Source: Candidatus Azotimanducaceae bacterium
GTDB taxonomy: Bacteria > Pseudomonadota > Gammaproteobacteria > Pseudomonadales > Azotimanducaceae
Length of the DNA stretch: 64,000 nucleotides
Assembly (NCBI GenBank): GCA_965220235.1
Contig: CBDCPL010000001.1
Coordinates: 70-64,069, forward strand
Reading direction: 5' to 3'
Below the pieces are notes generated by a model, which had not been told where the DNA came from, did no database searches, and saw nothing but the letters and a program-made list of their open reading frames with translations. Shown in pieces: positions 12,345 through 35,616 of this stretch. The position numbers and the translations under genes were made by a program. Positions within the stretch are counted from its first letter, which is position 1, and each line of letters starts with the position of its first letter.

Positions 12345-14960
12345 TTAGCGGGAATACCTAGAATCCGCGGAATCGACCAGATGTAGGAACTGGTCTCGCA
12401 ACTGCGCACCGACATTCTCTGCGATCTCTTTCGAGTCGCCTCCGCTTGCATTCACGTTGACCGTCAGGTCGCCCACTGTGACGTTCCTGTTCGCTTGAGT
12501 TTCGTTGGCAATCACTTGGTTGGTCACGGCTGATTGCACCGCCTGTGGCGAACGTCCGTTGATTGTGGCGGGAATGTTGCCTGCCGTTGCCGTTGCTAGC
12601 GATGGCGAGAAGGTCTCGAAAGCGGTCTGAAGCCAACTCGGTAGGATTGCCGAAAGATCGAACCCGCTGAACCAGTCGACGATGGTCGTATCAAACCACT
12701 CGGTCAGGCTGTTCCAGCCGTCCTTGAAGAAGTCGATAAATGATTGCCATTTGGCTGTCCATGCATCGACCGTCATATCCCACGCCATACCTGCCCGCGT
12801 GGAGAACTCCTCGAACTGAGCGATGATGACCTCCGCCCACGCGGAGGCATCGAACAGCGACTTGAATATCTCCCATCGTGCCGACCAGTCATTGAGCATC
12901 GTCTGCCACTCAAGACTGGCGACAGCAGACCAGACCTGCATTTCGCCTTGTAGCGCCACGCCGAGATCGGCAAACAACTGCTTGAGGCGGTTGTCTCGCT
13001 CGTCCCACCTAATCTGCTGGAGGCGCAGTTCAAACTGCTTCTCTTCCGGTACATTGGCAAACGGATCGGTACGGTTGCGCTCGGTGATTTGCTCCGAATA
13101 GCGCACGAAACGATCCCACCAGTTTTTCGGTTCGCTATTGTCGAGTATTGAGATGGGCTTGGCGGGCTTGGCGATGTCGTCGTTGGCGTTCCACCAGTCC
13201 TGCAACTTGATCCAGACCCGCTTCCAGTCGTCCGTTGCTTCTCGTTGTCGAGCGTCCTGTATCTTTTTCCATTGGAGGAATCGCTCTTCGGGATCCTGTG
13301 CCAGTTTCCAGTCGTCCACATGGACTACGACATCGACCGTCTGGTCAAGCGTATCTATTCCGCCCTCTGCTTCGAGTTCGTTGACGATCTTGCGCTTGAT
13401 GGTGACCGTGTCTTTCTCGCCCAGCTCGAAGAAGTCCGATATGGCGGTCGCTGCTTTCTTGACCCAATCGACGATGTCTTTCCAGTACACGATCACGGCG
13501 GCAATAGCACTGGCTACTGCGACCCAAGGCAACGCACGCATGGCAATACCTAACGCCCGTACAGCGACGGTTTTTGCACCGATGGCAGCCGTTCCAGCGG
13601 CAGTTGCTGCCGTGCTGGTAGCGGTCGCTGTGGTGAACAGACCCGTTACGAAACTAATGGCTCTCATAATGGGTACGAGTCCACCGAGAATGAACGTTAG
13701 GGCTTTAAGTGCGAAGCTAACGCCGATCAAAGCCGTACCCCATTTGAGCGATGCGGCGATTAGATCGAGGATGTTGCGGTGGACAAATTCGCCCTTGTTC
13801 TCGCCGTCCTCGTATTTCCGTACCAATTCAGCCATTGCATCTGCTACTACGGCAAATGCGCGCGTCATGAACCCGGTGGAATCAATGACCTCGAACATCG
13901 AGTTCCGCACGGTATCGAGCTGTGCCACTAGTGTGTCCCATGCGCCCGATACGCCTGACATCAATATACCTACGTCCTTCGCAACGGCTTCTGCGCCGAT
14001 GGGCATGAGCGAGTAAATATCCGCAAGCACATCGCCCGCACGACTCGCTACGCCAGCAAACGGTGCCGCGTACTCCTGACCTACGATCCGACCGATAGCT
14101 GAGGTTAGCGTTGACTCGTCAGGCGCTCGTTGGTAGATCGTATCGAGGAGACGGATAAATCCATTTTCCTGCGCTAGCATCTCGCGTAATTCTTCGATGG
14201 TGATATTGACCGCAGAGAGTGCCTCTGGTACGGTCGTTGCACCTTCGCCAATACCAGACATCGCGTCGCTTAGCTTTAGCATGAACGCATTGAGACCGCG
14301 TGATGCAGTTGGAATTTCAACCCCGGCAGTCTTAAGGTTAGCTAGCGTTGCGATGTACTCCTCGTTGGATAGACCTGCGCGCTTGACGTTACCGATGCTA
14401 GCCCCGAAGGCAGCTCCGACCTCACCGAATGAACCCGGTGCGATCTTGCCTATATGGATGAGCTGCCCCATGAACTTCTTGAGTTCTTCGTTCGACAGCT
14501 CTAAGTTAGCTTCTGCTTGCAGTGCCCACAGAGCAACGTCTGGGATTTGGTCTTTGAGTCCTGCGGCAACTGAGGTTTCAACCACAAACGGCGTGAAATC
14601 GAGCGTCTCCTCGACACTCTTGCCGAATTTAGCTATCACATCTTGCGCCTGAATAATGTCCTCAGTGTTGACCGGGAGATTAGCTCCTACTTCAAGTGCT
14701 TGATCGTAGAACCGTTGTGCTTCATCTGCTGTTAAACCGAGCGTGGTACGCAGCATGTTGATCGCACGATCGGTTGTGATGCCTGCTTGCGTAAAGGTTG
14801 CGAGACCACCAGCTGCTGCCGCACCAACCACCAGTGCTTGCGTGCTGAGCGTATTGAGTTTTGCACGCGTGGCGTGAAGGCGTGATTCGATTGCGCCTAA
14901 CGCTGCCGAGTCGGTAACAAAGGTGAAACGCGTGACCAGCGTGTCGATGATCTTAGCCAC
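12345..14960 (-). CDS. Tail tape measure protein
   Basis: 871 aa with a TP901-type tape-measure core pattern (AGLSNEEYIATLANLKTAGVEIPTASRGLNAFMLKL), a hydrophobic Ala/Gly-rich centre and a Trp-rich C-terminus. It follows the frameshifted chaperone pair. Confidence 0.85.
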   Translation of the reverse strand: MAKIIDTLVTRFTFVTDSAALGAIESRLHATRAKLNTLSTQALVVGAAAAGGLATFTQAGITTDRAINMLRTTLGLTADEAQRFYDQALEVGANLPVNTEDIIQAQDVIAKFGKSVEETLDFTPFVVETSVAAGLKDQIPDVALWALQAEANLELSNEELKKFMGQLIHIGKIAPGSFGEVGAAFGASIGNVKRAGLSNEEYIATLANLKTAGVEIPTASRGLNAFMLKLSDAMSGIGEGATTVPEALSAVNITIEELREMLAQENGFIRLLDTIYQRAPDESTLTSAIGRIVGQEYAAPFAGVASRAGDVLADIYSLMPIGAEAVAKDVGILMSGVSGAWDTLVAQLDTVRNSMFEVIDSTGFMTRAFAVVADAMAELVRKYEDGENKGEFVHRNILDLIAASLKWGTALIGVSFALKALTFILGGLVPIMRAISFVTGLFTTATATSTAATAAGTAAIGAKTVAVRALGIAMRALPWVAVASAIAAVIVYWKDIVDWVKKAATAISDFFELGEKDTVTIKRKIVNELEAEGGIDTLDQTVDVVVHVDDWKLAQDPEERFLQWKKIQDARQREATDDWKRVWIKLQDWWNANDDIAKPAKPISILDNSEPKNWWDRFVRYSEQITERNRTDPFANVPEEKQFELRLQQIRWDERDNRLKQLFADLGVALQGEMQVWSAVASLEWQTMLNDWSARWEIFKSLFDASAWAEVIIAQFEEFSTRAGMAWDMTVDAWTAKWQSFIDFFKDGWNSLTEWFDTTIVDWFSGFDLSAILPSWLQTAFETFSPSLATATAGNIPATINGRSPQAVQSAVTNQVIANETQANRNVTVGDLTVNVNASGGDSKEIAENVGAQLRDQFLHLVDSADSRYSR

Positions 14961-21838: not shown

Positions 21839-24800
21839 TTATTCCACAATCGTCCATTTGATTTGCATAGACCTTAAGCCGTTTCGGTACGCTATTCCGC
21901 TTGTGCCTACGACCGGCGGACCCGAATTACCTTGTGCTTTTAATGCTGATATGGTTATTTCTGTGAAAACACCGTTACTACGTGAGGCGGCAAAAGGTCC
22001 AATCACAATTCCGGGTGGATTACCGGTATCGAAATCACTATCGTAGACGACATTGTTGTATCTACTTGGATTAGAGATATTAAAGTAGCTATAGTTATTT
22101 CCCCTCGCTGCGTCATTCCAATCTGCTAGCGAGAGAGACCATTCGCCATCTACGGGTGGAGTGACTGAATCGATATTCGACCACGTACCTGTCCCCTTGC
22201 TATTAACCGCAGCTACCCGAAAATCGTAACTCGTCTCGGCTAGAAGAAGATATATTGTGGTAGAAGTGGCACTTGCAGAATTGATTGTGTTTTGTCGCGC
22301 TGAGCTGAAAGCTTGCGCACCCGATTTCCACTGAACGATAAAGCCGGTGATAGGTAGACCACCAGAGTTAGGGATGCTCCAAGATAACTCGGCACTTCCT
22401 TGACCGTTAGGACTCATCGCAGAGAAATTATTGGGGCGTTCTGGTGCTGTCGTGGGGACGGTTACGCTGCTCGTATCTGAGTAATTCCCGTTGCCAATTC
22501 CATTCACCGCTCTGACCCGCACATAGTAGGTCTCGCCCTTGTCCAATCCTGTGAAGGTATGCGAAGTCGAGGAGGATGTTGCGGTTGTCACGCCACTACT
22601 GAAATCGGAACTGGTAGATAGGTCGATGGAATAGCCAGTGATAGCAGAGCCGTTAGCGTTCGGTGCAGTCCACGAAGAAGCAATCTGCGTGCCTGTGGCG
22701 GAGAGCGTTAATCCGCCTGTCTTGTCTGGACGAAGAGCCGCAATCGCTGCCGAGTCTCTATCAGACCAATTGCCGTTGCCGATGTCATTGACCGCTCTCA
22801 CTCGCCCGTAATAAGTCGTTCCGCGTGTTAGGTTAGTAAACCTTGCCGTTCGCCCGCTCGTGATGTTCCGCGTTTGCAGTCCTGCGGTGAATCCTGTATT
22901 GGTCGCCAACTGAACTTCGTAACGAATGATGGCGGAGCCGTTGTTCGCTGGCTCTGACCATGCGTAGTCGATCCGTGTACCTGTGGTGGTCATATCGAGA
23001 CCGACCACTTGGCTTGGTGCAAGGGCAGCGATTGAACCCGATTCTGCGTCCGACCAATCAGCCGTGCCTGCGCCGTTAGTCGCTCGCACCCGCACATAGT
23101 AAGTCACGCCCCGTGTCAAGCCAGACCACTGATAAGTGAGAGTTGAAGCGTTGGTCGAAGCCGTCTGTCTACCCCGTGTAAAGCCGCTATTCGTGGCGAG
23201 TTCCAAAGCGTAGCCAGTGATCGCAGAGCCGTTATCGCTCGGCGCTGTCCATGTTCCTGTGAGCGCTGTACCTGCCACCGCCACCCCGAGCGTGGTGATA
23301 ACACTCGGTCGAACTGCGCCTATCTCTGCGTTGCTCGTGTCGGAGTAATTGCCGTTGCCGATGTCATTGACCGCCCTGACCCGCACATAGTAGGTCGTGC
23401 CACGCGTAAGATTGGTGAACGTATGCGAGCGAGAACTAACACTCGCATTTTGCACGCCTGCGGTAAAGCCCGTGTTGGTCGCCAACTGAACTTCGTAGCG
23501 AATGATGGCGGAGCCGTTGGCATTCGGTTCATTCCATTCGGCTTCCAGTGAAGTGCCGTCCGCTGTAAGCGAAAGTCCGCCTACTTTGGCGGGAGCGAGT
23601 GCCGCAATCATGACCGTTCTGGTAGCCGACCACGCTCCTTCGCCTTCACCATTCGCTGCTCGGACTCGGAAATAAATCGTTCGCCCTCGCGGTTGATCGA
23701 CAAAGGTAGCGGTGGTCGTACCGGCTGAAATAGTCGAACTCACCAAGCCAGACGAAAAAGCCGCATTCAACGCTCGCTGGACATCGTAATGCGTGATAGC
23801 ACTGCCTCTGGCGGCGGGTGCAGTCCAAGACAGTTCTGCGGTTTGCGCGGGGGCACTGGCGGAGAAGGTCGTTATCTGTGCTGGAACGAGCGCCCCGACC
23901 TGAATACTGGAAGCGTCCGACCATGCACCTGTGCCTGCGGAGTTGATCGCAGCGACCCGAACATAGTAGGTCGTCCCGCGAGTTAGATTGGTAAAGGTGT
24001 GAGTGAGGTTGTTGCTTGAAGCAGTCGTCACGCCAGATGAGAAATCGGACTGTGCGCTGAGTTGAAGTGAATAACCGGTAATGGGGGCGCCGTTCTCCGC
24101 AGGCTCCGTCCATGTGCTTACGATCTGCGTACCGGTGGTCGTTAGATCGGGTGCATCGGGTGCCGAAGGTTCGACCGCTGGAATGGTCGTGCTGGCGGTG
24201 TCGCTGTATTGCCCGCTCCCGATACCGTTGTGCGCGCGTATGCGGAAGTAGTAAGTCTCGCCATACGCCAAGCCCTCAAAGGTATGCGAAGTGGCGTTGG
24301 CAGCGGCGGTAATGATCTCTTGCGGGTTGGCAAAATCAGGGTCGCCATCATCGTCTTCAATCGCTCGTTCCAAGCGAAACAAGGTGAGCGCAGAGCCATT
24401 GTCGTTCGGTGCAGTCCACATCACTTCGATGTCCCGTCCCGTCCTGCGTAGCGTTGGCTGATTCGTTTTCGATGGCACGTCCGCAGGGCTTAGCGATGCC
24501 TCATTGCTTCTCGGACTTTCTCCTACCGCATTGACCGCCGTGACTACGATGTCATACTCCACCCCTGTCGTGAGCGTGATTAAAGAGTCGGTGTTCTGCG
24601 TGAAGGTTCGGCGGCTGTTATCGTAGTCCTGATTGCCTGACTTGTAATAGATACGATAGCCAGTGATAGACGACCCGCCGTTATCGCTCGCCCGTACCGG
24701 ATTAAATCGGACTCGGATGGACGCTCCCGATCTCGTGAGCGTCAGACTCGTAGGAGCGACAATTGGAGCGACTGCCACAATCGCTTGGCTTAGCGTGTTC

Positions 24801-25825
24801 GACCACTCGCCTCGCCCCTCGCTGTTGACTGCATTGACTCGCCAGTAGTAAGTTCGACCGGGCGTTAAATTGCCCGTCTGAAATTGAAGAGTTGAAGCCG
24901 ACAAATCATGTGTATTTACGTCTCGCGTGAACGCAGCGTTGGTCGCTTGCTGTATGCGGTAGCCCGTGATGGTAGCCCCGCCATCGTTCGGAGCAGACCA
25001 AGACACTCGATACTGAATACCACGAACAATTTGACCGGTGATGGCAGGTGCGTCAGGCGGGTCGATAACTCCGCTAATCGCAGTCCATTCGGAAGCGTCA
25101 AAAGCACCACTTCCGGCAGAATTACGAAAATACAACTTGCGGTTGAATTGCACTATCGCATATTGCTGGTACGGTATCTCCGAGTCGAATTCCAGCACGC
25201 CCCGCGATAAGACTTCATGTTGCAGCGAAGTGATCTCGCAGAACAATTGATTGAGGATCGTGCGTCTAGGAGTCGGACCCGCGGCGTCAGAATAGGAACT
25301 CGGATAACCTACGTTACGCGTGAGGCGAGTCGATGCCACCAGTGCTTCGTCATTAGGTAGATTACGCTCGCCATCAATCGCCCAGGGTCTGATCCGATTG
25401 ATCGCCAGTTGCGCCAGCGAATCAGTCTCGACCGTACCTGTTACTGCGTCTTCAAAGATCTCCCAAGTGCCGCTATGACTTGTGGGTCTCACTGTGGAGC
25501 CAGGCCCGTTAGCGACTCTGGCTCGATAAATCGTCCCTGCGGAATTGACCAGTGCGCCGGGCAAATAATCCACCGAGTTTACGTACTCAGGAATGCCGAT
25601 GGTATTGACCTCGACTACACCGCTGGATAGCCAATAGAACAGACGATTCCAGACTGTGCGCATGAGATCGGTCGTACCGCCTGCGTGATCGCTCGTCCAT
25701 CCGTTCGCTTGCACGGGTTGAGCGAAGTTAGCGGCGGCTACATCGTCCGTATCGTTCGCTACGGTGCTTGCCCAGATGTCCGATGCAACGGTTTGGAGGC
25801 GTTTAGCCTCTGTTTGTCTCGGCAT
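21839..25825 (-). CDS. Tail fibre protein with about ten tandem fibronectin type III domains
   Basis: 1328 aa with ~95-aa repeats of the pattern W(T/S)xPxxNGSAITGY...TxLTRGTTYYVRVRAVN. The N-terminus carries two copies of a fibre-anchor-like segment. Confidence 0.8.
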   Translation of the reverse strand: MPRQTEAKRLQTVASDIWASTVANDTDDVAAANFAQPVQANGWTSDHAGGTTDLMRTVWNRLFYWLSSGVVEVNTIGIPEYVNSVDYLPGALVNSAGTIYRARVANGPGSTVRPTSHSGTWEIFEDAVTGTVETDSLAQLAINRIRPWAIDGERNLPNDEALVASTRLTRNVGYPSSYSDAAGPTPRRTILNQLFCEITSLQHEVLSRGVLEFDSEIPYQQYAIVQFNRKLYFRNSAGSGAFDASEWTAISGVIDPPDAPAITGQIVRGIQYRVSWSAPNDGGATITGYRIQQATNAAFTRDVNTHDLSASTLQFQTGNLTPGRTYYWRVNAVNSEGRGEWSNTLSQAIVAVAPIVAPTSLTLTRSGASIRVRFNPVRASDNGGSSITGYRIYYKSGNQDYDNSRRTFTQNTDSLITLTTGVEYDIVVTAVNAVGESPRSNEASLSPADVPSKTNQPTLRRTGRDIEVMWTAPNDNGSALTLFRLERAIEDDDGDPDFANPQEIITAAANATSHTFEGLAYGETYYFRIRAHNGIGSGQYSDTASTTIPAVEPSAPDAPDLTTTGTQIVSTWTEPAENGAPITGYSLQLSAQSDFSSGVTTASSNNLTHTFTNLTRGTTYYVRVAAINSAGTGAWSDASSIQVGALVPAQITTFSASAPAQTAELSWTAPAARGSAITHYDVQRALNAAFSSGLVSSTISAGTTTATFVDQPRGRTIYFRVRAANGEGEGAWSATRTVMIAALAPAKVGGLSLTADGTSLEAEWNEPNANGSAIIRYEVQLATNTGFTAGVQNASVSSRSHTFTNLTRGTTYYVRVRAVNDIGNGNYSDTSNAEIGAVRPSVITTLGVAVAGTALTGTWTAPSDNGSAITGYALELATNSGFTRGRQTASTNASTLTYQWSGLTRGVTYYVRVRATNGAGTADWSDAESGSIAALAPSQVVGLDMTTTGTRIDYAWSEPANNGSAIIRYEVQLATNTGFTAGLQTRNITSGRTARFTNLTRGTTYYGRVRAVNDIGNGNWSDRDSAAIAALRPDKTGGLTLSATGTQIASSWTAPNANGSAITGYSIDLSTSSDFSSGVTTATSSSTSHTFTGLDKGETYYVRVRAVNGIGNGNYSDTSSVTVPTTAPERPNNFSAMSPNGQGSAELSWSIPNSGGLPITGFIVQWKSGAQAFSSARQNTINSASATSTTIYLLLAETSYDFRVAAVNSKGTGTWSNIDSVTPPVDGEWSLSLADWNDAARGNNYSYFNISNPSRYNNVVYDSDFDTGNPPGIVIGPFAASRSNGVFTEITISALKAQGNSGPPVVGTSGIAYRNGLRSMQIKWTIVE

Positions 25826-28391: not shown

Positions 28392-28742
28392 TCACTTCAC
28401 CCAGAACGTGCCTTTGAGTTCTTTACGCTTTTTGGCGATCCGCTTTAACTCCCGCCGCGCCCAGTGCTTGATGCAAAGTCCATCTTGGTACACCGACCAA
28501 CGACACCGCCTTGTCGGATCACCGAACATCGAATCTTTGCACTGCTCGACTGGATCCTCTTGGTAATCCATCACAGGCAGGCGGTTTTCTAGCTCTATCT
28601 GTTCCTCAAATGTCTTCTGCTTTGATCGCAGCTGAACTTTGCGAAGCGGGTTCTGTTGATGCAGTTTGGCGTGGCAAGATAGACACTTGCCACTAATATA
28701 TGACTCGTTCCAGCAACCTCTGGTGATGCACTTCCGCTCCAA
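28392..28742 (-). CDS. Cys-rich (zinc-binding-like) protein; start uncertain
   Basis: It has CxxxxC...CxxC...C...C..C..H cysteines and a TTG start directly after the upstream stop. Confidence 0.45.
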   Translation of the reverse strand: MERKCITRGCWNESYISGKCLSCHAKLHQQNPLRKVQLRSKQKTFEEQIELENRLPVMDYQEDPVEQCKDSMFGDPTRRCRWSVYQDGLCIKHWARRELKRIAKKRKELKGTFWVK

Positions 28743-28744
28743 AA

Positions 28745-30706
28745 TTAAGCAACACTTATACCGTTGGGCAACTTAGCTCGTTCGGCGGCAAGCTGAGCAA
28801 CCTTGTCCCAATCCTGATCATCTAGCGCGTCCGCTAGATCAACTGGAAACACTGCCTTCTTTAATCCACGATGCGCGTCCATCGGGCCAGGATCAACGAT
28901 GTGATCAACGAACTCGCTCTTAGCACCACGATAGGCGTTGTACAAGTTGTAGAAACGCAGATGGTATTGACCGTCGGGGCCTGCTTGCACGGGCACAATA
29001 GAACAATGCAGGTAGCGGTTGTATCGACCATACGGCAACACGCTCTTCCACTTGCGATCATTTTTATCAATATAGGTCGCCCGACCGCGTTGCCACTTCG
29101 CAAATCTCGGCTCGACAGGAACACCACGTCCGCCCTGTGAGGCTTGAGCCCAGATGTCTTGATCTCGCTTTCGACCGCCCTTTTGCGGGTGCAGGTACTG
29201 CACGCATGTCCGCCACGCATCCGCTCCGTTCTTCATGACACTCGGATGTTCCGCAACAAAGACTAGCCATGTAGTGTCGGCAACTGCTCGGCGCGGAAAT
29301 AAAACGACTTCGAGCAATACTGGTGGCGGTGGCACCTTCCCCTCGAGGACAGGTTGGATCGATTTAAGATAGGCAAACAGTTCCTTTTGCTCCTCGACCA
29401 ACTCCAGATACAGCTCCTTTGAGACTAACTCTGGCGGTGTCGCCATCGGATCATCGCCTGTAAGCATGTTGTCAAAATCGTTTTTTTTAGAAATCTCTTC
29501 GAGTGTGACTTCTTGGATCACCGGCACATCTGGCGGTGTTTCGGCAGGCGTGCTTTCCGCCCTTTCCGCCGCTTCGGTAAAAGGCTGTTCTAATTTATCG
29601 AGTGCCTCCGCAATCGGTCGCCAGCCGTGCCATACCTTGACGGATTTCCATGCTTCGCTGGCAGTGAATGCCTCTAATGAGCTGCTCACTTCTTCGCCAA
29701 AAGCAATTAAAACGCGAAGCCAGTTCTCGCCGTAGTTGCGGTCTTTGCGGTGCTTGTTCGCATCGTAGTATCCGTACACGGTATCTATGAGCGATTGAGG
29801 AACTTGGTGGGTGTTATCTTCGTTTTTTTCGAAGTTGGTCACCATTCGCTCGGTCGCAGGTCGACTCGGTGGATCGACCTCATTGGCTAAAGCATCGTAA
29901 ACTGGTTTCCACCCTTGATTTGGCATGATTAGCTCGACTACATCTAACGTCACACCGAACTTTGCGCAGACATCTCGGATTGCTTGCTGGTCTTGGGGAT
30001 CCACTGCGTCTACGGCAGTGGCAAACTCATTACTCAATACTGCGTCATTCGAGGCTACGACTCCGCCCGCGCGTGCCTGCGTCCAATGTCCGTACAACCA
30101 GCCACGATATTGATCGTAGTTGTAGCCTAACTGCGACGCAGCTCTCGACGATTCGCCCTCTTTGACCATCTGGATGAGGTGTTCGTAGACCTTGTTTTTG
30201 ATCGCCACATCCGACATACCATTGACTTCGATCACATACTTGCGCTCTTCTTCAAGCCATTCGATAAAGCCATCTCGGTGTTCGGGGGGAACGACAGGTT
30301 GCTTGAGCGTGTTGCCTTTCTCGTCGACCACGCGTCCGTCCACGTGCGTGCGGGTCGAGGTGTATGACCCACGCCCCATCTTGTCTTTCTCTGCTGGACT
30401 TAGTTGCTCGAACTTGACCCGCCCTTCTGCCTGCGTCTTGGTCATGCGGTATTGCTTGTAGTTCTTCCAGTCCCCCGTGTTCTCCGAAGCCTCAATGCAC
30501 GGTGCAATAGTCAGCCAAGGCTCGCCTCGATTGGCAGCTAACTCCCAAGCCTTATCCGTAGGCAGCGCTTCCACGCCACCGATATTACCGCCAAGAGCTT
30601 TCATGCACCGCTCGAACATGACATACTCAAACGATCCATACGGGTACTTGTTTCGCTGACCCAACAGCGAGTCCAGCAGACTGGATAAATCAGTCGTGTC
30701 AATCAT
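28745..30706 (-). CDS. Large protein of unknown function sharing a motif with 32068..33357
   Basis: 653 aa. YDANKHRKDRNYGENWLRVLIAFG...SEAWKSVKVWHGWRPIAEALDKLE parallels the 442-aa protein. Confidence 0.65.
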   Translation of the reverse strand: MIDTTDLSSLLDSLLGQRNKYPYGSFEYVMFERCMKALGGNIGGVEALPTDKAWELAANRGEPWLTIAPCIEASENTGDWKNYKQYRMTKTQAEGRVKFEQLSPAEKDKMGRGSYTSTRTHVDGRVVDEKGNTLKQPVVPPEHRDGFIEWLEEERKYVIEVNGMSDVAIKNKVYEHLIQMVKEGESSRAASQLGYNYDQYRGWLYGHWTQARAGGVVASNDAVLSNEFATAVDAVDPQDQQAIRDVCAKFGVTLDVVELIMPNQGWKPVYDALANEVDPPSRPATERMVTNFEKNEDNTHQVPQSLIDTVYGYYDANKHRKDRNYGENWLRVLIAFGEEVSSSLEAFTASEAWKSVKVWHGWRPIAEALDKLEQPFTEAAERAESTPAETPPDVPVIQEVTLEEISKKNDFDNMLTGDDPMATPPELVSKELYLELVEEQKELFAYLKSIQPVLEGKVPPPPVLLEVVLFPRRAVADTTWLVFVAEHPSVMKNGADAWRTCVQYLHPQKGGRKRDQDIWAQASQGGRGVPVEPRFAKWQRGRATYIDKNDRKWKSVLPYGRYNRYLHCSIVPVQAGPDGQYHLRFYNLYNAYRGAKSEFVDHIVDPGPMDAHRGLKKAVFPVDLADALDDQDWDKVAQLAAERAKLPNGISVA

Positions 30707-30931
30707 TTACAACGCTCTCTTTACGCTATATTTGTGCATTGCATCGTTAGCTATTCTGTTGTGCTCGACCAAACGGTTCAGGCATTCTGTCAGCGTTAGG
30801 TTTTCTTCTGCGTACAAGATATTGCATAGCCTGTTTAGCTTCTGACAATTCTCCGCGGTCAACCGATAATCAGTACCCTTCGGGTGATTCCTCTCAGTTC
30901 CAGTTGACATTTGAACTGCTTTCACAATCAT
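30707..30931 (-). CDS. hypothetical protein
   Basis: ATGA overlap with the upstream lipoprotein ORF. Confidence 0.5.
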   Translation of the reverse strand: MIVKAVQMSTGTERNHPKGTDYRLTAENCQKLNRLCNILYAEENLTLTECLNRLVEHNRIANDAMHKYSVKRAL

Positions 30932-31095
30932 TCGTCTTCCACCTGTGCCTTAATGCATCGTACCTTACGCTCGTGGTCGCTGATTTTCAGGCAATGCTCA
31001 ATCGCCGAGACGAACTCCGCTTCCTCTTGCCAGCGCTTGACCGTCGCGCAGCTACTTAGGAGGGCAACGACTACTATTCCAATGACTACTCTCAT
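30928..31095 (-). CDS. Small lipoprotein (55 aa)
   Basis: MRVVIGIVVVALLSSC carries the lipobox LSSC. The ATG at 31095 overlaps the nuclease stop (ATGA). Confidence 0.55.
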   Translation of the reverse strand: MRVVIGIVVVALLSSCATVKRWQEEAEFVSAIEHCLKISDHERKVRCIKAQVEDE

Positions 31096-31682
31096 TCCAT
31101 CTCCATCTCGGTAGATTCGCAACTTTCCAGTACTGCTTCCAAAGCGTCACGCTCTGCCGAGTCGATGGTCAGGGCGTACTTGCGCTTGACTTCGACGATA
31201 CGATTGACGTACCAGCACTCGTTTTCAAATGGCAACCATTCGGCAGCGTCTTTGTCGCACTTGCCCACGCCACGAGTTGCCTCGCGCGGATTACATCGAT
31301 TGACGTTCGGTGCGGCAAGCGTCAGATTGTCCAAATCCGTAGCGAAGTCTCGCTTAACCCAATCATCGTAAGCACACATTCCACTATCGTGTGCCTCGCT
31401 CCGAGCAACAATGTGTTCGATGTCAGTCTTGCGGATCGAGTCAAAATCTCGCTTGGTATAGGGGCCGTAAATTCGCCCGTCCTGCGCCGCAACGATCTTC
31501 TTTTCGACTGCTGGTGTGTAGTGGTAGTCCTTCGCGTTGTATGGCGAGCAGCGGTTCTCAGGTGCCACAACCAGTCCGTTCCAGGTCTCTTCGGCAAATG
31601 TCTTGATCGCCAGTGTGATGGCAACAGCGATGGCAAAAAAAGCAAATGGAACGGCAGCTTTCGTGAGGAGTTCTCGGATCAT
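31092..31682 (-). CDS. Exported His-Me finger nuclease (HNH/DUF1524-type)
   Basis: An N-terminal signal sequence (AVPFAFFAIAVAITLAIKTFA) is followed by RCSPY...TDIEHIVARSEAHDSGMC...DLDNLTLAAPNVNRCNP...AAEWLPFENECWY. Confidence 0.6.
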   Translation of the reverse strand: MIRELLTKAAVPFAFFAIAVAITLAIKTFAEETWNGLVVAPENRCSPYNAKDYHYTPAVEKKIVAAQDGRIYGPYTKRDFDSIRKTDIEHIVARSEAHDSGMCAYDDWVKRDFATDLDNLTLAAPNVNRCNPREATRGVGKCDKDAAEWLPFENECWYVNRIVEVKRKYALTIDSAERDALEAVLESCESTEMEME

Positions 31683-32062
31683 TTTTTACCCTTTGGTGTC
31701 GGTAATGGCTTCTGCCCGGTCTGGAAATACGCGGCAATGAAATACGAATAAGGCATGGCAATCGCCGCAATCATAGCGGCAACATCAAAGCCTTCCGGCG
31801 CGGCTGGAGTCATGCTGTACTCTACCACCTGCCACAACAAAACGAAAAATCCAAGCAGTATCAGGCGGGGGATGATCCGTAGGCGGTCAAGAGCATCGCC
31901 AAGACGATGGTAGAAACGCTTGCCCTGTTCGTCGAGTGCCTCTTCCAGCTCATCAATCTTGGATTCGAGTTCATCTTTCTCAGTCTCGTACTCACGAGCA
32001 ATCGCAAAGATCGCCTCGATGTCGCCCTTCTCTTTCGCGATATTGAGGTCAATAGTAGTCAC
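31679..32062 (-). CDS. Membrane protein (N-terminal coiled coil plus two predicted TM helices)
   Basis: Hydrophobic stretches IIPRLILLGFFVLLWQVV and VAAMIAAIAMPYSYFIAAYF. Confidence 0.55.
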   Translation of the reverse strand: MTTIDLNIAKEKGDIEAIFAIAREYETEKDELESKIDELEEALDEQGKRFYHRLGDALDRLRIIPRLILLGFFVLLWQVVEYSMTPAAPEGFDVAAMIAAIAMPYSYFIAAYFQTGQKPLPTPKGKK

Positions 32063-32067
32063 GCTAA

Positions 32068-33357
32068 CTACTTCCTAAAGCCGACGGTGCCGCACACGTC
32101 CATGCCACCTTCGGGGAATTGGACGATGATTTGCTTTGGCGTAACTTGGAACCCTTCTTTGATCTGTAGCCCGTGCGCTCTTACTCCTGCCAAACTCAAT
32201 ACACGATAATCGTCGCCGGCTTCACAAGCTGGTGTACTTCCTACTGTTTTATGGTACTTACCAAATTCCGGGACAGTGAGAGGTTGAAAGGTTGCATGAT
32301 GAACACGGTGAAAGTCGGCAACTCGCATTTTGTATGAGTAGGCTTTTGAGGAGAAACGAAACCAATCCGGCCCGCCACCACCTTTTGTCAAAAGGCGCAT
32401 ATACCAGTAGTCCTCGCTTTGCCACGCTTCGTCTCCGTCGCGCGTCTGCACGGGGCGGTGGAATGTTGCCCACCAGGTGTTGTTCTCTTTGGTGTACCTG
32501 ACCCAAGTGAGGTCGTCGTCTACTATTTTGAAGGTCGCTAGATCGCCCGCCAGTCGAATGTTTGGATGCGGTATCCCCGCAGAATGAGATATGACTGTCC
32601 CGCCAATCTCGAATTGGCTTGGCGAGATTTCGTCGCCCTCAACGATGTTGTTGTCGACGAGATTAACCCACGAATCAATCGAGTGGTAGATCGTTTTGCC
32701 CTTGCATATCTGCGTATTGCTGTTGTCTTTAATCGCAGGCACAGACCAACAACGATTATCGTCAGTGCCACCAAAACGCATTCGTTTGCTCACCGAATCG
32801 TCTAAGCAGATTTTTCCGCTAAGTGCAACAGGACGGAAGCAGGCTTGGTGTTCGTATGTCAGGTCGAGTCGTAACTGTGCTTGCAAATGATTTTTATTCC
32901 CGCCTTCGTCATACTCTGATAGGTGCGGAGACCTACTCCAAGACTGCTTGATCACGAAATGGTTGCGGACTGATTGGTCTTGTTGTGCGGCGGCTCGTTG
33001 CGGTTCGCCTGTTTGCACTGTTTGAGCGTTCGCTTTTTCAAGTTTCTCTAAGGCGATGCGTATCGGCTTCCAACCGCGCCACACCTTCTCAGACTGCTTC
33101 GCTTCCTCTGCGGTGTAAGCGGTCATTTCACAGGAGGTCTTGCCGACCAAGTTCCAGTCGTCTGCCGTCTTGTCCTCGAACGCTAACAGCACCCTAAACC
33201 AGTTGCAACCGCCATGTGAGCGGTGCTTGTTGATGTTCCAGTAGTGATTGACCTTGTTCACCAGCGGCGCGTCAGGAGTGTAAGCAAAGGTCGTTACGGC
33301 AGATAGGATCAAGAATCCGATAGCCACACTCGCTAGTATCCATTGCAGTTTATTCAT
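32068..33357 (-). CDS. Exported protein with a Calx-beta-like segment and the shared NW(F/L)RVL(L/I)AF motif
   Basis: The ATG at 33357 follows AAGGGGAAG. It has a signal peptide (MNKLQWILASVAIGFLILSAVTTFA), NIVEGDEISPSQFEIGG...FKIVDDD, and NWFRVLLAFEDK...KVWRGWKPIRIALEKLE. Confidence 0.6.
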   Translation of the reverse strand: MNKLQWILASVAIGFLILSAVTTFAYTPDAPLVNKVNHYWNINKHRSHGGCNWFRVLLAFEDKTADDWNLVGKTSCEMTAYTAEEAKQSEKVWRGWKPIRIALEKLEKANAQTVQTGEPQRAAAQQDQSVRNHFVIKQSWSRSPHLSEYDEGGNKNHLQAQLRLDLTYEHQACFRPVALSGKICLDDSVSKRMRFGGTDDNRCWSVPAIKDNSNTQICKGKTIYHSIDSWVNLVDNNIVEGDEISPSQFEIGGTVISHSAGIPHPNIRLAGDLATFKIVDDDLTWVRYTKENNTWWATFHRPVQTRDGDEAWQSEDYWYMRLLTKGGGGPDWFRFSSKAYSYKMRVADFHRVHHATFQPLTVPEFGKYHKTVGSTPACEAGDDYRVLSLAGVRAHGLQIKEGFQVTPKQIIVQFPEGGMDVCGTVGFRK

Positions 33358-33748
33358 TGTCTTGCTTCCCCTTTTGAGCGTCGATCGACTTCTCATAATA
33401 TTCGATTATGGCAGTATTGTCCACCGAATATCTGATCAGCTCTTCAATGGTCTCGGACAGTTGCTCGTAGCCGTCGGCATCGAGGCAGACCAGCGCCACT
33501 CCGTTAAGACGTGGATCGTCCTGCGTGACGACCAAGAAATCAGGTGCAGGTACGGTAACGGGAGTCGGGCGTTCGGGCTGGCGGATCGCAGGGCAATACT
33601 GCTCTGGCACCAAGACCTCTTTGACCTCCGTTTCTGGTTCGGGGAACAGGCTTACGCCGCAACCAGATATAAAAATGAGAGCAGCCGTGCATGTGGAAGA
33701 CACAGCTGCTCTCTCGAGCCAATGTGCGAAGTGGCTTAATAGTCGCAC
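33350..33748 (-). CDS. Outer-membrane spanin-like lipoprotein (o-spanin); start uncertain
   Basis: Lipobox LIFISGC followed by a Pro-rich region. It is the last gene of the lysis cassette. Confidence 0.5.
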   Translation of the reverse strand: MRLLSHFAHWLERAAVSSTCTAALIFISGCGVSLFPEPETEVKEVLVPEQYCPAIRQPERPTPVTVPAPDFLVVTQDDPRLNGVALVCLDADGYEQLSETIEELIRYSVDNTAIIEYYEKSIDAQKGKQDNE

Positions 33749-34514: not shown

Positions 34515-35173
34515 TAGGCTGGAACTCCCGCCTTCTTCATAAGGTGATCTGCTAGCTCGATAAAGAACCTAGTCGGTAACGACCAAATACTAGGCGTGAC
34601 ACCGAGCTGAATACCAAGTGCGATCTGCACGCCAATACCAATATCCACATGATCCGGGCCAAAGTCTTTCACCGCCCTGAGAATGCTACTGCGTTTTGCT
34701 TGGATCCCCTTGCTCGCGTATTGACGGCACGTCGCCTCGATGGCTTCCAATCTCGACCCGTCCAATGTGCCGTACCAATAGAAACCGATAGACACGACTC
34801 CAAGTGTGAACGGCAAAACAAAGGGAGCCTTGTGCAGATCTTTCTTGTCCTGCTCACTTGCTTTGCTCAGCAACGGGTGCATGACATCCCGCGTCACCTT
34901 GCACATCTGCGCCGCCAAAGTGAAGCCAGGTTTCACCGCCTCACCAGCTAACTTGGTCAACGCATCGACAATCAGCGATTCGAGTTCTCCACCTATGTCC
35001 TTGATCGCCTTTTTGACCTCGTCAGGCACGGCTTTCTTGACTTCTTTCTCGACCAGTTTGGCTACATCGCCAGCGGTGTCTTTGACCTCTTTGATCGGAT
35101 TAGGGATGCCACCTCCCTTGCCACCTATGCCCGGTATGTGTTTAACGCCCGGAATCTTTTTGAGAAAACTCAT
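34514..35173 (-). CDS. Membrane protein, holin candidate
   Basis: It is coupled (ATGA) to the endolysin stop, has a Lys-rich N-terminus, and has hydrophobic segments FVLPFTLGVVSIGFYWYG and IGIGVQIALGIQLGV. Confidence 0.4.
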   Translation of the reverse strand: MSFLKKIPGVKHIPGIGGKGGGIPNPIKEVKDTAGDVAKLVEKEVKKAVPDEVKKAIKDIGGELESLIVDALTKLAGEAVKPGFTLAAQMCKVTRDVMHPLLSKASEQDKKDLHKAPFVLPFTLGVVSIGFYWYGTLDGSRLEAIEATCRQYASKGIQAKRSSILRAVKDFGPDHVDIGIGVQIALGIQLGVTPSIWSLPTRFFIELADHLMKKAGVPA

Positions 35174-35616
35174 GACTCACATCGCCTCATTCTTCGCGCC
35201 AATCGGACGGCTCTTGCACCGACCTGCTCTGCCCATTTCGAGTCCAGCATTTCCAACGCCATCTCGTCGTAGTCGAGTATCTCCATCGCAGCGAAAAAGT
35301 TGGCGAAGTGACGTAAGCGATAGCCGATATTGAACGCCATATTAACTAGCACACTCTGTGCTTCCTCTGGCAGCATGTCCCAAGAGCCACTTCCTACTTT
35401 TTCGTTAACAATCTCTTCCGCACGCCGTAAAGCAGTCCGATAGTCTTGCTCGAATAGCATGTTCAAAAACGCCTGCTGTCGCCATCGTGGATCGTCTCTT
35501 TTCGGATCGTTAGGTTGCACTGCATGACCCCAGCCAATCGTTACTACACCGACCGAATCCGTATAAAACGACTTGACAAAGCCCTCGTCTTGCTTTATTT
35601 GCTGTCTTTCGTCCAC
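35170..35616 (-). CDS. Endolysin, T4-type lysozyme (GH24)
   Basis: QDEGFVKSFYTDSVGVVTIGWGH...VLVNMAFNIG...SKWAEQVGARAVRLARRM. Confidence 0.8.
   Translation of the reverse strand: MDERQQIKQDEGFVKSFYTDSVGVVTIGWGHAVQPNDPKRDDPRWRQQAFLNMLFEQDYRTALRRAEEIVNEKVGSGSWDMLPEEAQSVLVNMAFNIGYRLRHFANFFAAMEILDYDEMALEMLDSKWAEQVGARAVRLARRMRRCES

Follow-up and report, generated by a model that had tools for sequence, protein, structure and literature searches.

Directly behind the lysis genes of a 64,000-nucleotide stretch of DNA (contig CBDCPL010000001.1, assembly GCA_965220235.1; the whole stretch is called the window here), and translationally coupled to them, lies a module containing three overlapping genes, B, C and D, in which C is a predicted exported-type nuclease of the DUF1524/GmrSD_C His-Me finger group. 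The window is nearly the entire genome of an uncultured myovirus-like phage, and the three genes belong to a run of seven back-to-back open reading frames (ORFs), A to G, between the o-spanin gene and the baseplate-side genes, an arrangement described in a first-pass annotation of the window and borne out here. All window coordinates below refer to features encoded on the minus strand.

The gene overlaps that the annotation had placed at 33357, 31682, 31095 and 30931 can each be read in the DNA. The ATG of A at 33357 overlaps the stop codon of the o-spanin gene (33350..33748; PHROG 812 Rz-like spanin, E 8.4e-9; lipobox ISGC), which ties the A–G region to the lysis cassette, and ATGA overlaps join B to C (31682), C to D (31095) and D to E (30931); the E/F junction reads TAAATG. 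Shine-Dalgarno-like purine runs lie upstream of A, B and D, with AGGAAG preceding the GTG start of B. Localisation features were scored by simple hydropathy and cysteine counts. The signals claimed for A and C, the two transmembrane segments of B and the LSSC lipobox of D were all found among the sequence features, and E, F and G have no signal or transmembrane segment by hydropathy; with export or membrane features in just four of the seven proteins, the description of the whole set as envelope-targeted does not hold.

The predicted nuclease

C (31092-31682, 196 amino acids) matches Pfam PF07510 (GmrSD_C/DUF1524) with 26.8 bits against a gathering score of 23 (E 5.4e-6), residues 73-181 aligning to positions 35-135 of the 138-position profile. 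At E<=1e-3, a large protein database yielded 4,170 homologs of C; the best are 55-66% identical, and most bear a precomputed PF07510 domain together with a C-terminal Excalibur domain. C itself ends (..STEMEME) straight after the nuclease core and has no match to Excalibur PF05901, as is also the case for a minority of bacterial homologs of ~196 amino acids. Proteins that combine DUF1524 and Excalibur with transmembrane helices have been called putative extracellular nucleases and placed in His-Me group 3 (Jablonska et al. 2017, PMC5714182); our literature search found no experimental characterisation of the DUF1524-Excalibur family.

The catalytic core of C, residues 87-129 (31296..31424), reads DIEHIVARSEAHDSG...NLTLAAPNVNR, and D87, H90, E96, H98, D99, N119 and N128 are invariant in an alignment of 62 sequences. 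These residues fit the H...N...N His-Me motif and are putatively catalytic, their roles being assigned from the HNH/DUF1524 motif. Together with the N-terminal signal and the Pfam match above its gathering score, they uphold the annotation of C as a signal-bearing DUF1524-type nuclease.

The predicted signal sequence spans residues 1-30 (..KTFA, followed by EETW), and residues 8-26 have a mean hydropathy of 2.13. A hydrophobic N-terminus and the same overall layout are present in the 20 homologs shown aligned, and in most homologs the hydrophobic segment ends in small, A-x-A-like residues right before the conserved mature start ETW-G-L. C has six cysteines, which form three co-varying pairs: C130 and C142 are jointly missing in five homologs, and the nuclease of a jumbo-phage relative (L002, 224 kb) lacks C130/C142 and C156/C188 and retains C45/C103. 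Because the cysteines are lost pairwise, we infer three disulfides, which would place the folding of C outside the cytoplasm, in an oxidising compartment.

An AlphaFold2 (AF2) model of C has a predicted local distance difference test (pLDDT) score of 87.6 and a predicted template modelling (pTM) score of 0.79. Eight of its nine weak Foldseek matches are His-Me nucleases (Cas9 HNH, Vvn, PtuB), the top ones at E 0.24-3.9, and no solved relative is detectable by sequence. Two homologs, P0006 (342 amino acids) and P0007 (343 amino acids), have an extra N-terminal stretch that repeats the nuclease motifs ETW-G-L and PE-RCS, which suggests a tandem or partial duplication with an apparently degenerate first copy.

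Bacterial relatives of the nuclease

Our bacterial survey comprises the best 80 of 585 nuclease loci, with one genome scanned per species. These 80 loci lie in metagenome-assembled genomes (MAGs), are 49-63% identical to C and occur in several copies in some genomes. The MAGs are assigned to Alphaproteobacteria (including Rhodospirillales and Rhodobacterales), Candidatus Binatia, Dehalococcoidia/Chloroflexota, Bryobacterales/Acidobacteriota, Thermodesulfobacteriota and Gammaproteobacteria. In one Dehalococcoidia MAG, a 442-kb contig (CBDHFB010000011.1) carries three nuclease copies (L013, L062 and L063); two of them share identical downstream genes, suggesting recent duplication or a mobile context.

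MAGs with APA_bin names are symbionts of the sponge Aplysina aerophoba (PMC11706023). Such sponge-symbiont MAGs are among the closest bacterial homologs of C. We take the remaining MAGs, and the metagenome contigs with MKWU, LXNI and LXNJ names, to be sponge-derived too, and the host community of the window phage is probably sponge-associated. C was most likely acquired by the phage from this large bacterial pool of predicted extracellular nucleases.

B, D and the conservation of the module

B (31679-32062, 127 amino acids, GTG start) has an acidic N-terminal coiled coil, two transmembrane segments and a basic C-terminus. Its hydropathy and sequence features bear out the two-transmembrane coiled-coil protein of the annotation, and we predict an inner-membrane protein whose coiled coil is cytoplasmic. 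It matches PHROG 10198, a family of unknown function, at E 2.4e-6; a relationship to the XhlA-like proteins as a paralog was considered and rejected for lack of similarity. D (30928-31095, 55 amino acids) carries MRVVIGIVVVALLSSC, with the lipobox LSSC (ALLSSC), alanine at position +2, a signal hydropathy of 2.24 and a mature part of ~39 residues with two further conserved cysteines. The lipobox of its homologs is LLTGC in one related contig and the less canonical LTPGC in another, L004 and L005, respectively.

Both of these contigs come from the European Nucleotide Archive (L004, 69.9 kb, taken as circular from a name that ends in '_c'; L005, 9.9 kb) and are syntenic with the window. Endolysin and spanin genes are followed by a variable stretch and then by a conserved block with a B homolog (54% identity), the nuclease (54-56%) and a 56-residue lipoprotein homologous to D (50-54%). 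The block continues with a protein of 590 or 598 residues that bears the domain shared by A and F (see below) and with homologs of the window's 102-residue, 118-residue and wedge proteins. The overlap of the lipoprotein ATG with the nuclease stop, noted in the annotation, is confirmed in the window; the 4-nucleotide overlaps at B/C and C/D are kept in L004 and L005, and the C-D pairing extends to these two related phages. The seven genes do not form a conserved cassette as a whole: only B-C-D and the F-like gene recur, E and G are absent, and A has a weak positional counterpart in L005.

Comparison of L004 with L005 gives ratios of non-synonymous to synonymous divergence (dN/dS) of 0 for B (dN 0, dS 0.37), 0.17 for C, 0.15 for D and 0.10 for the F-like gene. 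Values of 0-0.17 argue that all four are real genes under purifying selection. The two B homologs (L004 8179-8538, L005 5798-6157) have 100% protein identity despite a synonymous divergence of 0.37, a constraint far stronger than that seen for the C and D homologs.

The L002 nuclease is 42% identical to C and has a clear predicted signal (..HVSA, followed by ETYRG). Behind it lie a two-transmembrane protein, a lipoprotein-like ORF and two XhlA-like proteins, which are lysis-type genes, and no B or D homolog is detectable there. Across the related phages examined, the predicted exported nuclease is accompanied by lysis genes. Two genes upstream of the L002 nuclease, a 240-residue protein (13469-14191) has the metzincin motif HEVGHVLGLGH, and a 211-residue rubredoxin-domain protein overlaps the nuclease start; the metzincin, rubredoxin and nuclease genes could be a degradative-enzyme cluster.

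Outside these phages, hidden Markov models (HMMs) of B and D were run on the 80 bacterial loci, up to 4 kb from the nuclease, and gave no match at E<=10; no recurrent downstream lipoprotein occurs there either. In another 83 nuclease loci, from IMG/VR and metagenomes, the models gave no match at E<=1. Because they are absent from these 163 non-phage loci, B and D are taken as phage-lineage-specific partners and not as parts of a family-wide operon, and D, for want of any D-like ORF there, not as a family-wide immunity protein. Relative to the bacterial family, C has lost the C-terminal Excalibur domain, and B and D are phage-specific additions.

A helical domain shared by A and F

A (32068-33357) encodes 429 amino acids from the ATG at 33357, which is also the start of the public gene call (P0208); the alternative upstream ATG at 33396 allows the 442-residue form given in the annotation. 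It has a predicted signal peptide (residues 1-25, ..TTFA, followed by YT), eight cysteines and an orphan C-terminal region of ~300 residues, and the protein has no match in Pfam, PHROG, NCBIfam or the PDB. A Calx-beta-like segment had been proposed for A. We compared A with the Calx-beta domains of proteins carrying the shared domain, and the proposal fails: no Pfam match at E<0.1, an hhalign probability of 0.2%, and an hmmsearch E of 0.07 with a negative score. The positional analogue of A in L005 is a 620-residue secreted protein right after the o-spanin, with a 71-residue similarity to the C-terminal part of A (pairwise E 1e-5); its N-terminus was considered as a divergent copy of the shared domain and gained no support from HMM or hhalign comparisons.

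A and F (28745-30706, 653 amino acids) have a segment of ~80 residues in common (BLASTP E 4e-15, 35% over 109 residues), so the motif that the annotation had reported in both proteins is real. The copy in A, residues 29-111 (33025..33273; HMM E 1.8e-35), contains an internal cysteine pair (GC...SC), and the copy in F, residues 301-377 (29576..29806; HMM E 3.4e-41), is of a phage subtype free of cysteine, like the F-type phage copies generally. When a profile built from five copies (A1) was run against 1.84 billion representative proteins, it matched 501 proteins at E<=1e-3, 276 at E<=1e-10 and 52 at E<=1e-30. The domain thus occurs in no fewer than 501 protein clusters, most of them giant secreted bacterial proteins with several domains.

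Among the top 149 domain-bearing proteins, on which we base our statistics, the median length is 972 and the maximum 4,651 amino acids; 78 have two to five copies of the domain (median spacing 211 residues), and none has a homolog of the C-terminal region of A. The N-terminus is hydrophobic in 81 of 147, and 131 of 178 strong domain copies have cysteines at both ends, an arrangement suggestive of a disulfide staple. The Pfam domains found in the same proteins are Calx-beta, LRR, Ig, A2M_BRD and fn3, a composition known from large secreted proteins of adhesin-like or eukaryote-like type. A itself has a copy of a rarer subtype that directly follows the signal peptide, as in the bacterial proteins P0163, P0215, P0233, P0239 and P0247.

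AF2 modelling of the domain from a 45-sequence alignment gives a five-helix bundle of ~75 residues (pLDDT 87.5, pTM 0.80). This fold has no match in the PDB (best E 4.3) or BFVD (best E 3.2), Pfam, PHROG and NCBIfam hold no model for it, and a PDB sequence search reached E 0.2 at best. The motif string appeared in no paper in a literature search, and a word-indexed search with the domain alignment returned three fragments only. The annotation's statement that the motif belongs to no family it could name therefore stands, and no mapping to a structural family was found. We regard the domain as an undescribed extracellular family, most likely a binding module. A helical domain that is confidently folded, disulfide-stapled, present in at least 501 clusters and without a database description is a target for work on the structure and binding of symbiont surface proteins.

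F belongs to a modular family of phage proteins, in which its homolog P0002 is 49% identical; a jackhmmer search from the C-terminal part of F was disregarded, having drifted into the shared domain. P0002, P0004, P0262 and P0219 are encoded in phage structural modules. The F-like gene of L002 directly follows homologs of the window's 1,297-, 455- and 236-residue proteins; that of L086 lies four genes after a homolog of the 236-residue protein, with Mu gp36-like, tail-terminator and spike genes coming next; that of L003 comes after giant fibre-like proteins. Every F-like locus examined lies in a structural module except L087, a 10-kb locus without structural genes. These occurrences speak against the claim that the region has no structural signature, and from this context F may be a virion or morphogenesis protein. 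We do not count A or F as components of the nuclease machinery proper. The F-like proteins of L004 (9267-11039) and L005 (6889-8685) end in 'RDCDNFA ... GGHAYN', which resembles a transglutaminase/papain-like Cys-His core; the C-terminus of F in the window is unlike theirs and is held in common with P0002.

E, G and the genome context

E (30707-30931, 74 amino acids) has no homolog in L004, L005 or L002; it is possibly ribbon-helix-helix-like, and its only Pfam match is a sub-threshold one to DUF5948 (E 0.057). G (28392-28742, 116 amino acids, TTG start) has two C-x(4/11)-C-x9-C-x2-[C/H] modules of zinc-ribbon-like appearance, matches no family or PDB entry and has no counterpart in L004 or L005. 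Comparing A, E, F and G with PDB sequences brought up nothing of use. E and G, like A, are lineage-specific; since both are cytoplasmic and neither recurs in L004 and L005, they may be small regulators particular to this lineage.

The window has no DNA relative in INPHARED, where DNA and tblastn queries with the region, A, F and B gave no match and C matched only four distant actinophage genes. Scans of IMG/VR with F, C and B and of JGI metagenomes with D found no relatives. The spanins point to a Gram-negative host. From high to low coordinates, the minus strand encodes terminase, portal and head genes; two fibre-like proteins of ~1,300 residues; the 455- and 236-residue proteins; the endolysin (35170-35616); a 219-residue protein; an XhlA-like membrane protein; i-spanin and o-spanin; A to G; the 102- and 118-residue proteins; a DUF2612 wedge protein, a 1,328-residue fibre and baseplate J, W and hub proteins; and finally sheath, tube and tape measure. 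The identities of the flanking spanins, endolysin and baseplate genes were confirmed.

The lysis cassette thus stands amid the structural operon (12345-35616), with fibre genes on one side and baseplate genes on the other. In transcription order the baseplate genes come ahead of sheath, tube and tape measure, a module order unusual for a myovirus. The 1,328-residue fibre protein (21839-25825) is made up of a minor-tail-protein unit repeated about ten times (PHROG 6977, 10 stretches), and its homolog in L004 bears fn3 domains.

Discussion

No new mechanism is demonstrated here; B-C-D is a real, tidy module, and the helical domain is a moderately novel by-product separate from the nuclease. For the module itself the reading that we put first, giving it an even chance of being right, is that C acts as a lysis-coupled exported DNase that clears spilled DNA. 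Late in infection C would be exported and would fold in the periplasm with its three disulfides. It would be held there with or beside B and D until the action of holin, endolysin and spanins opens the envelope, and would then digest the unpackaged DNA, both host chromosome and unpackaged phage DNA, released at lysis. Virions would thereby be freed from viscous DNA in a dense host-associated matrix, and DNA reaching the periplasm before lysis would also be degraded. The enzymatic activity, localisation, timing and role of C are all deduced here from sequence.

Several observations weigh against this proposal. The localisation of C is argued from hydropathy, cleavage-site-like residues and cysteine co-variation, and the nucleases of L004 and L005 have an N-terminus without a clear A-x-A site, which may therefore be a membrane anchor and not a cleaved signal. 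Foldseek found no match to the model of C in the PDB at E<=1e-3 (best E 0.24). A scan for sigma-70 promoters and terminators returned sites at chance level and was uninformative, so that co-transcription of A–G with the lysis genes, and with it the timing of expression, is deduced from gene packing. Nothing indicates that lysate viscosity is important to this phage. A lysis-coupled DNase leaves the roles of B and D unexplained, and the 100% identity of B at a dS of 0.37 suggests a role more demanding than tethering. Finally, the F-like proteins of L003, L086 and L087 have no nuclease nearby; with three such lineages the link between shared domain and nuclease is not obligatory, and the nuclease may have nothing to do with A and F.

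In the classical 'superinfection breakdown' of T-even phages, host endonuclease I degrades the DNA. A phage-encoded combination of exclusion and breakdown, in which B would block DNA transfer across the inner membrane as T4 Imm does, D would shield an outer-membrane receptor or the entry site as T5 Llp or Cor do, and C would degrade DNA released into the periplasm by secondary phages, plasmids or transformation, is conceivable for the window phage, although we think it unlikely. Sequence features would place one of the three proteins at the inner membrane, one in the periplasm and one at a lipid-anchored position, and all three are conserved together and linked by translational coupling. The bacterial nuclease homologs, for their part, occur in several copies and across phyla, in a habitat rich in phages. 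Periplasmic DNases of mobile elements do degrade incoming DNA, as with IdeA of a Vibrio cholerae integrative and conjugative element (ICE) and Dns of the Campylobacter jejuni Mu-like prophage CJIE1 (PMC12378983). However, exclusion genes are normally early or lysogenic, whereas B, C and D sit in a late operon with no separate promoter detectable, and no integrase was found among the window ORFs scanned. Neither do they resemble the exclusion families of PADLOC or PHROG, and B and D match nothing in the INPHARED, IMG/VR or JGI scans.

The annotation had read C and D as laid out like a nuclease/immunity pair. In the window, L004 and L005, D lies downstream of C, with its ATG overlapping the stop codon of C; D is co-conserved with C, under purifying selection, and tiny and presumably disulfide-containing like many protein inhibitors. 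That D actually binds C and keeps it inactive in the periplasm until lysis, or protects the producing cell, strikes us as improbable. None of the 80 bacterial loci and none of the 83 IMG/VR and metagenome loci has a D-like ORF, no downstream lipoprotein recurs, the L002 nuclease has no D homolog, and D has no similarity to known immunity families; moreover, an exported nuclease does not encounter the DNA of the cell that makes it, so immunity is not obviously needed.

We give similarly little credence to the view that there is no three-protein machine at all, B and D serving as lysis accessories and C and A being cargo ('morons') picked up from the host community that happens to lie in the variable stretch behind the spanins. 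Its more detailed form, with B as a holin/antiholin-like timer of class-II topology and D as an extra outer-membrane lysis factor, is to our minds just as doubtful. In favour of this view, no canonical holin was identified, the endolysin lacks a signal sequence, and B has two transmembrane segments, a basic tail and extreme conservation; yet B is separated from the endolysin by a distance of five genes, has no match in any holin family and shows no detectable similarity to the XhlA-like proteins. Also in its favour, relatives differ greatly in what lies between the spanins and B, the genes in L004 and L005 being different ones that include HNH and zinc-finger proteins, and the lysis-type genes after the L002 nuclease are unrelated to B and D. 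Against this, the overlaps from B to C to D are kept while everything upstream varies, which argues that B-C-D is a functional unit. These readings are not mutually exclusive. Very improbable, in our estimation, is the boldest version, in which B-C-D is an envelope-spanning DNase machine, with B as inner-membrane anchor, C as periplasmic nuclease and D as outer-membrane lipoprotein, that destroys all DNA entering the periplasm of an infected cell in a self-contained 'exclusion plus breakdown', and in which, separately, the helical domain binds matrix or DNA and was borrowed from the adhesins of the hosts for sticking in sponge tissue, much as Ig-like domains act in mucus.

Comparison with known systems

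The closest known relatives of C are the DUF1524-Excalibur nucleases (PMC5714182), the best of which are 55-66% identical over the nuclease core and have the same hydrophobic signal, invariant motif and cysteine pattern. C differs from them in lacking the Excalibur calcium-binding domain, in its place in a phage late operon beside lysis genes, and in its partners B and D, which are absent from the 163 non-phage loci. At 55-63% identity, the nuclease is common to at least six named bacterial lineages and their phages, a pattern that bears on gene flow.

C has the same PF07510 domain as the type IV restriction enzymes of the GmrSD/BrxU type. Unlike these it has no DUF262/GmrS NTPase domain, is only 196 residues long, and has a predicted export signal and cysteine pairs; its neighbours B and D have no DUF262/GmrS domain either. 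Since there is no GmrS domain, C is not a GmrSD restriction enzyme. Vvn/EndA (PDB 1oup) is a small periplasmic disulfide-rich His-Me nuclease, as C is predicted to be, with a TM-score of 0.41-0.42 to the C model over 180 columns, although the match is not significant (E 0.5, 14% identity) and no sequence relationship is detectable.

Small phage proteins that act on incoming DNA or receptors from the inner membrane, or as outer-membrane lipoproteins, include Imm and Sp of T4 and Llp and Cor of T5. B and D have no PHROG or PADLOC similarity to them, and those proteins are expressed early or from prophages and are uncoupled to a nuclease. PADLOC and NCBIfam scans of the region's proteins returned nothing.

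In function, the nearest parallels would be exported DNases of other mobile elements, which are known from a few pathogens. Like IdeA and SxnA of V. cholerae ICEs and Dns of CJIE1 (PMC12378983), C would be an exported, presumably non-specific DNase encoded by a mobile element, and like the Spd1/Sda-type DNases of Streptococcus pyogenes prophages (PMC8115907, PMC7538557) it would act outside the cytoplasm. The genes for IdeA/SxnA, Dns and Spd1/Sda are conversion genes of lysogens or ICEs, with no coupled membrane protein and lipoprotein, unlike C, whose gene sits in a late lysis/structural operon of a genome in which no integrase was found. These DNases also belong to nuclease families other than that of C. 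If the enzyme is active, the module could be used to test why a phage has DNA destroyed outside the cytoplasm, be it for virion release from viscous lysate, competitor exclusion or nucleotide salvage. Set beside the DNases of these other elements, C would represent an exported DNase of a different family, wired into the lysis operon of an environmental phage and accompanied by two conserved membrane partners.

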